Shown here: positions 4,201-10,667 of the stretch, one piece after another
Position numbering within the stretch: position 1 is the stretch's first letter
Layout: every line of letters starts with the position of its first letter
Source: Escherichia coli
GTDB lineage: Bacteria > Pseudomonadota > Gammaproteobacteria > Enterobacterales > Enterobacteriaceae
DNA length: 64,000 bases
Strand: one strand, 5' to 3'
Assembly (NCBI RefSeq): GCF_030384885.1
Contig: NZ_CP128613.1
Notes under the pieces: generated by a model
Told to the model about the DNA's origin: nothing
What the model saw: the letters and a program-made list of their open reading frames with translations, nothing else
Database searches by the model: none
Position numbers and translations under genes: made by a program

Positions 4201-5290
4201 CTTGTAACAAGGTGATATGTGCCGTAGACGCATCAGCGTTGACATTAATTGATGTGCTAAGCGTGGAGCTACCATTTTCCAGACTGGCCTCAACGGTATC
4301 CGGCCTCCCTCCTGATTCTGCCGAGGAACGGGTATTGGTATAAGTGACGGTTGCCTTACCCTGTTCGTTCGTTACGGCTTGGCCGCCATTCGTCATTTCA
4401 GCAGAGTTTGTACTGCTGGTGAAACTCACAGTTACACCTTTCACCGGAAAGCTATTATTATCAACGACTGTCGCGGTGATGACGCTGCCGGTGCTATTCT
4501 GCGGGGTACCAGCGATTATGCTGTTTGGGACAGACGTCAACCCAATAATTTTTGCCGCAGCTGTGTCGCCAATAAAGTGCACAGTTTTGTGGTCGCTGGC
4601 ACCATTATTAGCAAGTGATACAGTGACCGTCTGCTCACCAAAGGCAACGCCTACGAGAGTGGCCTGCGCGATGCCAGACTCATTGGTATTACTCTCCCCT
4701 GGGGTGAGGGTGAGGCCTGAAGAGGCTGAGCTGAATGTTACCGGAAGATTGTTCACCTCATTGTCGAACTGGTCTTTAACCGTTGCAGTTAACGTTGCAC
4801 TATCGACGCCATTACCCGTGATCTCATCTTTTGACATCTGCAGGGCAACCTGAGCCGAGGTTTTGTCTGCCACAAATGTTACCGGCTGCGATTCACTGGC
4901 ATTGTTATTAATCAGCGTCGCGGTAACTGTATGCGTGCCCGCTTTTTTACCTTTGAGGGTGACATGCGCTTCCCCATTGGCTTGGGTGACGGTAATACCG
5001 TTATTTTCAAGGGTAAAGTTTGCCGCGACGTCTTGTGGCATGGTGAAATTCACCGCTATCCCCGCCACCGGATGATTCGACGGATCTTTCACTGTAGCTG
5101 TCAGCTGCACACTGTCGCTGTTATTCGTCACCACCTGGTGAGCAGGAATGTTCAGCGTGAGCCGCGCGTTGCTGGCATCGGGAGCAATATTGACTGTCTT
5201 CGAATCGCTATTGCCGTTAGGCAGAGTGGCTTCGGCTGTATGAACACCCAATACCGCGCCTTTTAGGGTAACTTCAGCAAACCGCCATGG
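1208..5290 (-). pseudogene. yeeJ: 5'-truncated inverse-autotransporter adhesin (YeeJ-like, tandem Big_1 Ig-like repeats)
   Basis: 1347 aa ORF made of repeated Ig-like modules (..VTLKGTKAGTHTVTA..); Ig-repeat frame continues upstream of the first start to a stop at 5294-5296; no signal peptide, LysM or beta-barrel region; K-12 YeeJ recalled as about 2358 aa. Confidence 0.65.
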
Positions 5291-5535
5291 CAGCTAATAT
5301 GCTGGGTGTTGACGTCATTAATCTCGCTAATGAAGGTTGTTTGTGCCTGTTTGTTGAACCTGAGTATGCTCAGAAGGTACTACATTTGCTGCAGGAGCAT
5401 CCTGTCGGCAAGCACGCGACAATTATCGGCGAGATCACCGCTGTCTCGGGTACTGAAGTCTATATGATTGAAGCTGATGGAACACACACAGAAGTCGAGG
5501 AATTATATGGCGCAGAATTACCCAGACTCTGTTGA
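5272..5535 (+). pseudogene. HypE-like (PurM superfamily) C-terminal fragment ending in PRLC
   Basis: Open frame from 5272 ends ...ELYGAELPRLC*, matching the HypE C-terminal PR(I/L)C carbamoyl-acceptor cysteine motif; only about 85 codons remain. Confidence 0.5.
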
Positions 5536-7885
5536 GCTTCACGAGACGCCGGAAACCCGGCGTTACCGCATCTGTGGGGTCGTTCAGGGCGTTGGATTTC
5601 GTCCCTTTGTTCACCGACTGGCCCGCACCTATGGTGCCACCGGCTGGGTGTTAAACGATTCAGAAGGCGTGTTGCTTGAGCTGCAGGCATCCGGCACGGT
5701 TATTGCCAGAATCATGGACAAACTGGTGACCGAGGCACCACCACTGGCAAAAATCATCAGTACGCAGGAAGTTAGCCCAACGGATACCAGAGCGCACTAT
5801 GAAACGTTCAGCATCCGTAAAAGCCGCGATCATACCAGCATGGACACGATTATCCCGCCAGATACCAACGTCTGCAGCGATTGCCTGCGCGAGATAAGCG
5901 ATCCTGATAATCATCGTTATCGTTACGCTTTCACCAATTGCACCAATTGTGGGCCGCGCTATTCCATTATTCTTGGTATGCCTTACGATCGTGCCCAGAG
6001 CACTATGCGTAAATTCCCTTTATGTCCAACCTGTGAGCGTGAATACAACGATATTGAGGATCGACGCTATCATGCCCAGCCCAATGCCTGCCCAGTTTGC
6101 GGCCCACAGTTGCAACTTACCGATCGACAGGGCACATCCGTTCACACAGATGATATTGTCAAATTTGCCATTACGAAACTAAAAGAAGGCGGAATTCTTG
6201 CAATAAAGAGCCTTGGTGGCTTTCATCTCGTGGCCGATGCTTGCAATGAGAATGCTGTCAATGAACTTCGGCAACGCAAGCGAAGAGACGCCAAACCTTT
6301 TGCAGTGATGGTCGCGGATGTGGAAAGCGCGTCGCGTATTGCTTTCATCCCCCCCTGTAATCACAAATTGCTGGAAAGCCCGCAGCGTCCCATTGTCTTG
6401 TTGTATAAGCGCAACGTCCTGCTGGCGAGTACCGTTGCGCCACATAATCCGAACATCGGTGTAATGCTGCCTTCAACGCCGCTTCAGCATTTATTGCTGG
6501 AAGACCCGTCTCTGCCGATCCTGATTATGACCAGCGGTAATATTTCCGGTCATCCGATCGTCTTTGACAACGACATGGCAATTAAGCAACTCGGGAAAAT
6601 CGCGGATTACTTCATTCTGAATAATCGCGATATTCATACGCGTGTTGACGATTCGGTGGTCCGCACGGTGTTTCGCAACGACGCCATTACCTCGCAGCTA
6701 TCGTTTTTGCGCCGCTCCCGCGGTTACGCGCCATACCCTATTCATCTACCTTACGCAGTGGATTCCGTTATCGCGCTCGGGGCGGAGCTAAAAAACACGA
6801 TCAGCATCGGCAAAGGAAAACAGGTTTTTCTGAGCCAGCATATTGGCGATCTTAAGAATAACGTGACTTTTAAATCACATATCGAATGTATTGATCATCT
6901 TCAAAACCTGCTGAACGTGAAGGCAAATGTCGTGGCCTGCGATTTGCATCCCTCTTTCCGCTCTACCCGGCATGCGCTGGAGAATTTAGAGCATCAGGTT
7001 GTTCAGGTTCAACACCATCACGCGCATATGGCATCCTGCATGGCGGAAAATGGCCTGTCAGGTACTACTCTAGGCGTAATTTTTGACGGTACAGGATATG
7101 GCACCGACGGCACCATTTGGGGCGGTGAGTTTCTCGTTGGTGATTTCGAAAAATTCGAGCGTGCAGGATGCTTGCGTTCAATGACCCTGCCCGGAGGCGA
7201 TCGGGCAGTTAAAGAGCCGCTGCGCGTCGGCATCTCCTTACTGGTGGAAACCTTCGGCGAAGATATCAGTACGCTCGCAGTACCAGGCTTGCAGGCGCTC
7301 CAGCCTCAGCAGCGCGATATATTCAGTAAAATGGCGACCAGAAAAATCAACACCACCACGACCAGCAGCATGGGCAGACTATTTGACGGCATCGCCGCGC
7401 TGATGGGCGTTTGCACTCAGGTGGAGTACGAAGCCCAGGCGGCCATTGAACTGGAAGCGCTGCTGCAGTGTAAACTTCATATGACGGCTCCGTTCAGCTA
7501 CATCATTGCCGATGTCGAGAATAAGCTCGAGGTGGATTATCGCCCGATGATAAGGGAACTGGTGCAATGCTTCAGCCAGCCCGGTTTTGATATGGCCGAA
7601 CTAAGTCGGCGCTTTCACTCTACCATCGTCGACATGATTTGCGAGGTCTGTAAACGTCTGGTGGCACGCTCAGGCACGCAACAAATTGTCCTGAGCGGCG
7701 GCGTGTTCTGCAATGAATTCATCCTCGTTAATTCTCTTAACAGTCTGGAGTCTTGTGGATTCCGGCCTTACAGCCATCAGTTAGTTCCGACTAACGATGG
7801 TGGTATTTCATTGGGGCAAGTGGTTATTGCTACCGCATACACTCGCGCAACGCGCAATAAAAATCTGGAGAGAGAAAATGCATAG
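5507..7885 (+). CDS. HypF-like carbamoyltransferase (acylphosphatase + 2 Zn-finger + YrdC + Kae1-like domains)
   Basis: VQGVGFRPFV acylphosphatase signature, two CxxC..CxxC Zn-finger pairs, YrdC-like and Kae1-like C-terminal regions; ATG at 5507 overlaps the HypE-like stop. Confidence 0.75.
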   Translation: MAQNYPDSVELHETPETRRYRICGVVQGVGFRPFVHRLARTYGATGWVLNDSEGVLLELQASGTVIARIMDKLVTEAPPLAKIISTQEVSPTDTRAHYETFSIRKSRDHTSMDTIIPPDTNVCSDCLREISDPDNHRYRYAFTNCTNCGPRYSIILGMPYDRAQSTMRKFPLCPTCEREYNDIEDRRYHAQPNACPVCGPQLQLTDRQGTSVHTDDIVKFAITKLKEGGILAIKSLGGFHLVADACNENAVNELRQRKRRDAKPFAVMVADVESASRIAFIPPCNHKLLESPQRPIVLLYKRNVLLASTVAPHNPNIGVMLPSTPLQHLLLEDPSLPILIMTSGNISGHPIVFDNDMAIKQLGKIADYFILNNRDIHTRVDDSVVRTVFRNDAITSQLSFLRRSRGYAPYPIHLPYAVDSVIALGAELKNTISIGKGKQVFLSQHIGDLKNNVTFKSHIECIDHLQNLLNVKANVVACDLHPSFRSTRHALENLEHQVVQVQHHHAHMASCMAENGLSGTTLGVIFDGTGYGTDGTIWGGEFLVGDFEKFERAGCLRSMTLPGGDRAVKEPLRVGISLLVETFGEDISTLAVPGLQALQPQQRDIFSKMATRKINTTTTSSMGRLFDGIAALMGVCTQVEYEAQAAIELEALLQCKLHMTAPFSYIIADVENKLEVDYRPMIRELVQCFSQPGFDMAELSRRFHSTIVDMICEVCKRLVARSGTQQIVLSGGVFCNEFILVNSLNSLESCGFRPYSHQLVPTNDGGISLGQVVIATAYTRATRNKNLERENA

Positions 7886-9811: not shown

Positions 9812-10367
9812 TTTCTGCCTGGCAAATACTGTGAAACGCTGACGCAAATTTTACTTTCCTGCGTATTGTCATCACAGGCCGTACAGACAGTGCGCGGTCT
9901 GTTGGCGGATCTGCCTGGTATTTTGCCGATGAACTGAGGGCGTCCTGCGGGATACGTATCGCCAGGGGCGTGAAACTAATTGATGAGGTGGCGGCATGAT
10001 GCCGGCGGACTAGCATATCTGCCTTTCGCCGCCTGACATGTCCTTTGGGGCCGCTGTCAGTTCAGAGTAAAGGAGAAAAAGATCGATACCGAGGGGGGGC
10101 ACGACGCCCCGGAGACACCCCTGTTTCGTCAGACAGTCTGTACCGCGTACAGCCTGAAACTCCCTAAACCTCAACAAACTGCCACTTCGACGTGAAGGTA
10201 TCGTTCTGGCGCAGCCAAAAAGCACATGCCGGAGACTGTTTTTTAGGTTGTAGAGGGTAGTCATGAGCAAATTAAGTAGTGAAATGAAGGCCCTGACGAA
10301 GAAAGCAGGCGGCAGCTTCAAAACGGTAAATGACCGTATCCATATTACAAAACGGTTCAGTGAGCAT

Positions 10368-10667
10368 TTACGCGAACTGAACATCCAGATCCGGCGGGTA
10401 TGCGCCAAGACTGACTCTGGATTCTTTTCCGTTGAAACGATATTTGAGATACCAGATGCGTGAACCGCCCGGATTGACGAGCAGATACAGACCGTGAGAG
10501 TCGGAGAGTTTTACCGGACGGGAAGAGGTTTTTAACTTGCGGATTTTAGAATCGTTTAAAGACATTTGGGGGTCACTCCAGAATCGAACCAAACTGACCC
10601 CAGATCTGACCACCAAATTATCCCGATGCGGAGAGAAAACCAGATACGCACCGGGGAGGATTTTCAC
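10368..10667 (-). pseudogene. P4-type tyrosine integrase, N-terminal fragment only
   Basis: 99 aa ORF with P4-integrase N-terminal motif (KLSDSHGLYLLVNPGGSRIWYLKYRFNGKE); sits directly at the asnT 3' end; downstream frame is not integrase-like. Confidence 0.6.

Follow-up and report, generated by a model that had tools for sequence, protein, structure and literature searches.

A hydrolase–HypE–HypF cassette on a decayed tRNA-Asn-linked islet of Escherichia coli probably serves small-molecule chemistry outside hydrogenase maturation

Results

Gene content of the islet

Beside a tRNA-Asn gene in a 64,000-nucleotide stretch of Escherichia coli DNA (contig NZ_CP128613.1 of RefSeq assembly GCF_030384885.1; the whole stretch is hereafter called the window) lies a small islet with genes related to hypE and hypF. 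Four overlapping frames follow one another on the plus strand: the remnant of a hypE gene (5279–5535), a complete hypF-type carbamoyltransferase gene (5507–7885), a gene for a HAD phosphatase (7878–8618), and one for a transporter of the major facilitator superfamily (MFS; 8618–9811). Consecutive frames share 29, 8, and 1 nt, respectively.

The hypF-type gene is intact and encodes 792 amino acids. In one chain, its product unites an acylphosphatase domain, two HypF zinc fingers (CxxC), a YrdC/Sua5 domain, and both Kae1-like subdomains (Pfam PF00708, PF07503 twice, PF01300, PF17788, and PF22521, each at E < 1e-15), and it scores 788.5 bits against TIGR00143, whose curated equivalog cutoff is 466.1. 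Pairwise alignment with HypF of E. coli K-12 revealed that the motifs VQGVGFR, GGFHL, HHHAH, DGxGxGxDGxxWGGE, and DGGxSLGQ are kept. We also considered an O-carbamoyltransferase of the TobZ/NodU type, which is ruled out by the full HypF architecture; the Carbam_trans_C profile gave no significant match (E = 4).

What remains of hypE are the last 85 of 343 codons, as delimited by open reading frame (ORF) listing, BLAST, and six-frame search; counted from the first in-frame ATG, the ORF runs from 5287 to 5535 (82 codons). The stump retains the C-terminal acceptor-cysteine motif PR[IVL]C (…GAELPRLC) and has lost the N-terminal ATP-binding/dehydratase body, whereas the intact allele described below possesses the full PurM-like AIRS/AIRS_C body with its ATP-binding motifs and scores 415 bits against TIGR02124 (cutoff, 252). 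Islet HypF and islet HypE are each only 39% identical to their K-12 counterparts (b2712/b2730).

The HAD protein (246 amino acids) falls into the HAD-IA beta-phosphoglucomutase/sugar-phosphatase subfamily: it carries motif I (DxDxT/V) as DMDGVLIDS, reaches 67.6 bits against TIGR01509 (cutoff, 29.4), and has the phosphorylated-carbohydrate phosphatase TM_1254 as its nearest solved relative. Its top named matches are likewise sugar phosphatases (PRK11587 sugar phosphatase, TIGR02009), all under the equivalog cutoffs. The MFS protein (397 amino acids, assigned through NCBIfam) is weakly similar to TsgA, YhhS, and sugar-efflux-type MFS proteins; a search for a relative of solved structure returned none.

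When all six frames of the 64 kb were searched with K-12 HypA, HypB, HypC, HypD, HypE, HypF, HycE, HycG, and HycI, only the stump and the hypF-like gene matched. The first-pass annotation of this DNA had described a four-domain HypF preceded by a roughly 85-codon HypE fragment ending in PRLC, overlapped downstream by HAD and MFS genes and unaccompanied by hypCD or hydrogenase genes; profile searches, alignments, and the six-frame search bear out each of these points, and the HypF-like ORF keeps its conserved catalytic residues.

An intact allele reveals a single 7,155-bp deletion

For comparison, we used the intact islet locus of E. coli 2013C-4282 (L001), in which the order is adhesin gene, LysR regulator (opposite strand), 199-amino-acid cysteine hydrolase, 343-amino-acid hypE overlapping hypF, HAD, and MFS; that is, a divergent LysR gene and a five-gene operon. 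In this strain, the hydrolase, hypE, and hypF genes lie at 498–503 kb of NZ_CP027579. Window positions 440–5283 match L001 1–4845, and window positions 5279–11883 match L001 12001–18605 at 100% identity (BLAST). Relative to L001, 7,155 bp (L001 4846–12000) are thus gone from the window, and the two sides of the junction have no more than 5 bases in common (5279–5283, placed by the BLAST coordinates and by sequence comparison with the intact islet). The window HypF is identical to WP_000068451.1 of L001, and the stump frame is 100% identical to the C-terminal 85 codons of the intact HypE.

The deleted segment held the LysR regulator, the promoter region, an isochorismatase-fold cysteine hydrolase, the first 258 hypE codons, and half of the adhesin gene. 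In L001, this yeeJ-like gene is intact and measures 7,989 bp (769–8757); in the window, a 3′ remnant of 1,347 codons encoding an Ig-repeat adhesin is left on the minus strand (1208–5251; ORF listing and BLAST against the 2013C-4282 locus), where it persists only as a TTG-initiated ORF. One deletion therefore truncated both the adhesin gene, which lost its 5′ half and promoter, and the operon. The remnant is presumably a pseudogene, and any N-terminal export signal was presumably lost as well, because the promoter and 5′ half are gone.

The deletion junction occurred in none of 5,426 complete E. coli genomes, from which we conclude that the deletion is private to the window genome and recent; this recency would also explain why hypF, HAD, and MFS are still intact. 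A promoter-like site is present in the divergent LysR–hydrolase intergenic region of the intact allele, whereas none was found upstream of the stump in the window. Because the regulator, the promoter region, and two of the three core enzymes (the hydrolase and, through removal of 258 codons, HypE) are gone, the window copy is most likely non-functional and its remaining genes are most likely silent passengers. Such a copy can mark the presence of the islet but does not offer a working pathway.

The islet is a horizontally acquired island at tRNA-Asn

Two 26-nt direct repeats (L001 9171–9196 and 17444–17469; 24 of 26 positions match) lie 8,273 bp apart in the intact locus, the second coinciding with the 3′ end of tRNA-Asn. 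The left copy is located within the segment deleted from the window, so that only the right one survives here (10722–10747, converted from L001), overlapping the 3′ end of the tRNA-Asn (GTT) gene (10727–10802, minus strand; tRNA scan) that served as the integration site between mtfA and the yeeJ-like gene. On the near side of this tRNA gene, RefSeq annotation of the identical DNA in L001 (16985–17287) marks an integrase N-terminal domain fragment (10263–10400, plus strand) and an integrase Arm DNA-binding fragment (10395–10565, minus strand), which together are the stump of the island's tyrosine recombinase.

By megablast, 16 of the 5,426 complete genomes contain the islet, and in all 16 the match begins at window position 5279. 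It occupies two different tRNA-Asn sites in E. coli: strain Z1323HEC0462 (L002) carries the same six genes at another tRNA-Asn copy, adjacent to nac and cbl, and there a full-length but frameshifted integrase takes the position of the stump. The islet thus shows all features of a tRNA-linked island (insertion at a tRNA 3′ end, direct repeats, integrase fragments, patchy distribution, and two sites), and we conclude that it is an 8.3-kb island integrated at the tRNA-Asn gene and horizontally acquired. To the left of the islet in L002 (1–9114) are genes for galactitol-type phosphotransferase-system transporters, a sugar-phosphate isomerase, an epimerase, and hxlB, and no adhesin gene; in this genome, the six genes may belong to a larger composite island.

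Base composition was tried as a further marker of the islet and rejected, the GC content being host-like (0.49–0.52). The nearest relatives of its proteins are enterobacterial, with 95% identity for the hydrolase (Raoultella terrigena) and 86% for HypF (Kluyvera), and the exact E. coli islet proteins recur on ~900 contigs of public assemblies. Housekeeping hypF is found at ≥80% coverage in 5,424 of the 5,426 E. coli genomes; being nearly universal, it makes the islet HypF and HypE extra copies.

Horizontal acquisition beside tRNA-Asn and an integrase stump, and one deletion hitting both yeeJ and the operon, had already been proposed from the window alone, and both proposals stand. That the upstream part of the operon had been deleted was also correct, although the missing genes, recovered from the intact locus of 2013C-4282, are not further hyp genes: they comprise those for LysR and the cysteine hydrolase and 258 codons of hypE.

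A hydrolase–HypE–HypF cassette spans several phyla

The closest HypF relatives (60–86% identity) derive from Kluyvera, Enterobacter, Salmonella, Serratia, Gilliamella, Burkholderia, Trinickia, Sorangium, and Cystobacter, and their neighborhoods all open with an isochorismatase-fold hydrolase, HypE, and HypF. In Enterobacter, this trio is preceded by LysR and followed by HAD; in Burkholderia, the order is LysR, trio, HAD, a GlmS-like SIS protein, an amidohydrolase, MFS, and CN_hydrolase; in Sorangium, a giant nonribosomal peptide synthetase (NRPS) precedes the trio and an ABC exporter fused to a membrane domain follows it. HypF relatives at 51–55% identity (Hafnia, Streptomyces, and a metagenome) again carry the trio. 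We looked for ordinary hyp operons among relatives at 52–56% identity and found none; these have the trio, or a HypF beside paralogs of aminoacyl-tRNA synthetases. The HAD gene is linked to HypF in 11 loci and an MFS homolog lies 3′ of HAD in six.

Using the hydrolase as a search marker across one genome per species (~100,000 species), we obtained 68 hydrolase loci, in which individual genes were detected by searches against all ORFs. Hydrolase, HypE, and HypF were all present in 60 of the 67 loci analyzed, adjacent and in the same order in nearly all, and within 10 kb not one of the 67 had a homolog of HypA, HypB, HypC, HypD, or the hydrogenase large subunit (HycE). The taxonomic range of the cassette takes in Enterobacterales, Burkholderiaceae, myxobacteria, many actinomycetes, and some Firmicutes. 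Matrices of pairwise identity for hydrolase, HypE, and HypF are correlated with one another (r = 0.83–0.96; none of 999 Mantel permutations reached the observed values), a pattern consistent with inheritance and transfer of the three genes as a unit. The Hafnia cassette is nearer to the Streptomyces type than to that of E. coli, a mismatch with taxonomy that points to horizontal transfer.

The HypE proteins of these loci set themselves apart. In a neighbor-joining tree, 65 cassette HypEs form one clade that admits only three of 138 HypE representatives. Their C-terminus reads ELPRLC in 62 of the 65 and PRLC in 64, whereas 125 of the 138 representatives end in PRIC. An alignment of six cassette HypEs showed that all motifs shared with K-12 HypE (including GDTKVV, RDxTRGG, and ANEG) and the GAELPRLC end are invariant. 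Within a library of 1.8 billion representative proteins, the lineage accounts for only a few of the 873 HypE-like clusters formed at 50% identity.

Individual loci depart from this picture. At the locus of Gilliamella sp. WF3-4 (L016 9015–11428), LysR, hydrolase, and HAD are present while HypE and HypF are missing in between; here the operon has decayed independently and in a second way. A full-length HypF of the cassette type (P0038) is encoded by another Gilliamella strain. In Lonsdalea britannica (L028 11620–14011), HypF is split into three successive ORFs, apparently by frameshifts or stops, and hydrolase, HypE, HAD, and MFS look intact, a further sign of frequent operon decay in Enterobacterales. 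HypFs of Clostridium cellulovorans (L010 7934–12322) and of a Clostridia metagenome-assembled genome (L081 5132–10304), 52–54% identical to islet HypF, lie beside HisRS-like or SerRS-like paralogs and an unannotated ORF of 200 or 339 amino acids, with no hyp or hydrogenase genes nearby; these loci possibly reflect another non-hydrogenase use of HypF. Finally, Paraburkholderia cassettes (L041, L046, and L047) are accompanied by an EctB-like transaminase, and the 90%-identity cluster of their HypE includes proteins of P. phymatum. The ectB, hypE, and second hypF genes on the symbiotic plasmid of that species (Bphy_7266/7271/7272) are listed as strongly NifA-dependent in nodules (PMC8305402); they are candidate cassette genes.

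The constant partner is an isochorismatase-fold cysteine hydrolase

Sequence and neighborhood single out the hydrolase as the signature partner of cassette HypE and HypF. The window lacks the hydrolase gene, and the Rossmann-like fold and the triad of the protein (PF00857) are described here for the intact allele. Cys130 is invariant in the alignments; Asp10 and Lys97 are invariant in six sequences and at least 90% conserved in 44, and this Asp–Lys–Cys triad aligns with that of solved amidases. The predicted structure (predicted local distance difference test score of 93) is nearest to biuret and triuret hydrolases, RutB, N-carbamoylsarcosine amidase, and maleamate amidase, with template-modeling scores of ~0.8 to BiuH and RutB; the same proteins are the closest relatives by sequence, at 22–28% identity. 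Assignment as RutB or BiuH was rejected (53.7 bits versus a cutoff of 378, and 50.7 versus 370, respectively). Indeed, the hydrolase stays far under every NCBIfam equivalog cutoff, including that for N-carbamoylsarcosine amidase.

Neighboring genes point to small-molecule biosynthesis and export

Family clustering and NCBIfam annotation resolved five layouts around the cassette. LysR and HAD, with or without MFS, accompany it at 11 loci of Enterobacterales, Burkholderiaceae, and one deltaproteobacterial metagenome-assembled genome, with a GlmS-isomerase-like SIS protein, amidohydrolase, and CN_hydrolase added in Burkholderia and Trinickia. The second layout (~23 loci; Streptomyces, Hafnia, Photobacterium, Psychromonas, and Paraburkholderia) features an EctB-like diaminobutyrate transaminase, DdaF-like ATP-grasp ligases, and an EamA exporter; the third (~10 loci, Streptomyces) has ATP-grasp ligases only. 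NRPS modules with a threonine-transaldolase-like enzyme characterize a further ~10 loci of actinomycetes, with a Sorangium variant, and six loci in Saccharothrix, Amycolatopsis, and relatives combine a DesI-like sugar aminotransferase, an NDP-sugar epimerase/dehydratase, and a sugar-porter MFS. An M20 amidohydrolase appears in some actinomycete loci. The common thread of these neighbors is small-molecule biosynthesis and export, and the neighbor-family analysis found no conserved metalloprotein or scaffold gene beside the cassette.

Flanking DNA

Beyond the integration site, mtfA (10903–11700, minus strand; ORF listing) is followed by tRNA-Ser (CGA) (11794–11883, plus strand; tRNA scan), and identity to 2013C-4282 ends exactly at the 3′ end of the latter (11883). 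From 11884 to 16700 and beyond, the window consists of low-GC DNA (0.31–0.44) with ORFs of 300 amino acids (12105–13007), 72 amino acids (AlpA-like; 13214–13432), and 616 amino acids (NTPase-like; 14832–16682). This DNA forms an island of its own at the tRNA-Ser gene and may be a defense island.

Discussion

A carbamoyl-to-cyano pathway is proposed for the cassette

In the canonical system, HypF activates carbamoyl phosphate as carbamoyl-AMP and attaches the carbamoyl group to the sulfur of the C-terminal HypE cysteine; HypE then dehydrates this group with ATP to a thiocyanate that is normally handed to iron on HypC/HypD (PMC12134894). The first two steps in the islet system are presumably the same, because the catalytic motifs are fully conserved: HypF with ATP would make carbamoyl-AMP from carbamoyl phosphate and carbamoylate the PRLC cysteine of HypE, and HypE with a further ATP would dehydrate the thiocarboxamide to a protein-bound thiocyanate. 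We propose that the cysteine hydrolase then substitutes for the HypC/HypD iron scaffold, either as acceptor or, via its Asp–Lys–Cys triad, as transfer catalyst. The target would be a small-molecule nucleophile, most likely a primary amine, giving an N-cyano or a derived ureido or guanidino group. For the enterobacterial version, the neighboring genes suggest both acceptor and fate: central metabolism would probably supply a phosphorylated sugar or amino sugar, which would be modified, dephosphorylated by HAD, and exported by MFS under LysR control. Given its private 7,155-bp deletion, the window copy would be unable to run this pathway.

We hold different parts of this account with different confidence. 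That the cassette has a small-molecule role outside hydrogenase maturation is very probable. The account as a whole, in which a decayed island carries a carbamoyl-to-cyano small-molecule module, we consider on balance probable. Transfer of a cyano group to a small molecule is, taken by itself, a serious possibility short of probable. Somewhat more doubtful is the boldest version, in which the cassette is a portable, protein-templated cyanating machine that passes HypE thiocyanate to organic amines such as diaminobutyrate, amino sugars, or peptide intermediates; to name a product, for instance N-cyano-glucosamine or a diaminobutyrate-derived cyclic guanidine, would be speculative.

Several observations weigh against this account. 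None of the evidence presented here demonstrates transfer of a cyano instead of a carbamoyl group, and we infer both the chemistry and the acceptor. To our knowledge, the characterized relatives of the hydrolase are all hydrolases, and a cyano- or carbamoyl-transferase role among them would be without precedent. Only 32 of 73 loci have a primary-amine-forming enzyme close to the cassette, and the E. coli version is not among them; these neighbor counts are approximate, as ORF calling in the high-GC loci was home-made. The combination of LysR, MFS, and hydrolases is typical of a catabolic islet as well.

Weighing alternative explanations

The first-pass annotation had left the choice between a relic of an imported hyp operon and a carbamoyl- or cyano-transfer pathway directed at a small molecule that is dephosphorylated and exported. 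Were the islet a relic or spare of such an operon, its HypE and HypF would make cyanide ligands for a [NiFe]-hydrogenase, as the RefSeq labels hypE and hypF, scores far above the NCBIfam equivalog cutoffs, and the retention of all catalytic motifs would suggest. Yet the closest intact loci turned out not to be hypABCDEF–hydrogenase clusters: hypA/B/C/D and hydrogenase genes are absent from the window, from the intact E. coli loci, and from within 10 kb in the 67 related loci, where the constant partner is instead the cysteine hydrolase and the neighbors are NRPS, ATP-grasp, and aminotransferase genes. As cassette HypEs moreover form their own clade with their own C-terminal motif, and nearly every E. 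coli genome already has a housekeeping hypF, we regard the relic as extremely improbable; the comparative context favors transfer to a small molecule. Another idea is that the cassette provides cyanide, free or protein-bound, to a metal center or metallophore other than the [NiFe] cofactor, or releases HCN. HypE thiocyanate is the cyanide donor in the known system (PMC12134894), and some loci consist of the trio alone without an obvious acceptor pathway (L080); however, the genes beside the cassette include no conserved metalloprotein or scaffold and, variable as they are, consistently belong to small-molecule biosynthesis, leaving cyanide supply very unlikely.

Alternatively, HypE might be a mere carbamoyl carrier and the cassette might install a carbamoyl group (ureido or carbamate), with the hydrolase running amidase chemistry in the transfer direction via an S-carbamoyl-enzyme. 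Its nearest characterized relatives do act on terminal carbamoyl or ureido groups by way of a cysteine thioester (a terminal carboxamide in the case of maleamate amidase), and amine-supplying enzymes adjoin the cassette. Plain carbamoylation, however, is normally the task of transcarbamylases or of TobZ/NodU-type enzymes that work without HypE, and the invariance of the dehydratase motifs in the lineage argues that dehydration is used, which renders carbamoyl-only transfer rather unlikely. A route that breaks down or detoxifies an imported ureido, carbamoyl, or cyano compound (LysR-controlled uptake by MFS, amidase action of the hydrolase, dephosphorylation by HAD) would fit the frequency of LysR–MFS–hydrolase arrangements in catabolism, the resemblance of the hydrolase to BiuH, TrtA, and RutB, and the amidohydrolase and CN_hydrolase of the Burkholderia version or the M20 amidohydrolase of some actinomycete loci. 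Against this, HypF and HypE spend two ATP on building, not breaking, a C–N unit, neither protein has a known catabolic role, and the cassette sits with NRPSs, ATP-grasp ligases, and exporters (EamA; ABC exporter fused to a membrane domain). We judge a catabolic role improbable and retain carbamoyl-to-cyano transfer as the preferred explanation.

Implications and comparison with known systems

In the literature searched, the sole role of HypE and HypF is to produce the cyanide ligands of [NiFe]-hydrogenases. A cross-phylum lineage that is tied to a cysteine hydrolase rather than to HypC/HypD and lies among NRPS, ATP-grasp, and aminotransferase genes implies that small-molecule biosynthesis has recruited the carbamoyl-to-cyano chemistry. 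If this holds, the hydrolase gene and the ELPRLC motif offer a genome-mining handle for an unexplored metabolite class that would include products of gut Enterobacter, Citrobacter, Hafnia, and some E. coli, and automatic hypE/hypF annotations in such loci are misleading. Should the cassette indeed be a cyanating machine, N-cyano or derived guanidino and ureido natural products would arise by a C≡N route unprecedented outside hydrogenase cofactor assembly, both in Enterobacterales of the gut and in antibiotic-producing actinomycetes and myxobacteria.

Our search of the open-access literature retrieved no characterization of the cassette, only hydrogenase papers and one remark in the decRiPPter study, although subscription journals could hold one. 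NCBIfam (June 2026) had no dedicated model, and both proteins are automatically named hydrogenase maturation factors. A 2025 review of [NiFe]-cofactor assembly treats the hydrogenase role only and contains neither "isochorismatase" nor "natural product" (PMC12134894). The decRiPPter study noted Streptomyces hypE/hypF homologs with an ATP-grasp ligase and no other hyp genes and suggested a novel function (Kloosterman et al. 2020, PMC7794033). That Streptomyces cluster appears to belong to the same cassette family; its description there is a single paragraph, which does not extend to the hydrolase partner, the enterobacterial HAD/MFS version, the spread across phyla, or experiment (PMC7794033).

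As a mobile element, the islet resembles the tRNA-linked P4-type-integrase islands of E. coli in its insertion at the tRNA-Asn 3′ end, its 26-nt direct repeats, and its integrase remnants, but it is small (8.3 kb), host-like in GC content, equipped with a decayed integrase, and, in the window, deprived of its left end. With BiuH, TrtA, RutB, N-carbamoylsarcosine amidase, and maleamate amidase, the cassette hydrolase shares the isochorismatase fold and the Asp–Lys–Cys triad; whereas known enzymes of the BiuH/RutB type act alone in catabolism, the cassette hydrolase is translationally coupled to HypE/HypF. In TobZ, NodU, and CmcH, a YrdC-like and Kae1-like pair makes carbamoyl-AMP for carbamoylation in secondary metabolism. 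These enzymes have no acylphosphatase and zinc-finger domains and transfer the group straight to a small molecule without a HypE carrier, whereas the islet protein has the full HypF architecture. With the [NiFe] HypF and HypE (TIGR00143/TIGR02124), finally, the islet proteins have in common the domain architecture, the catalytic motifs, and the C-terminal HypE cysteine in PRxC; they differ in being 39% identical, in forming a separate clade that ends in ELPRLC rather than PRIC, in being unlinked to hypABCD and hydrogenase genes, and in being preceded by the hydrolase and usually located within clusters for small-molecule biosynthesis. What is known here, then, are the enzymes and probably their first steps; what is new is their partner and their destination.

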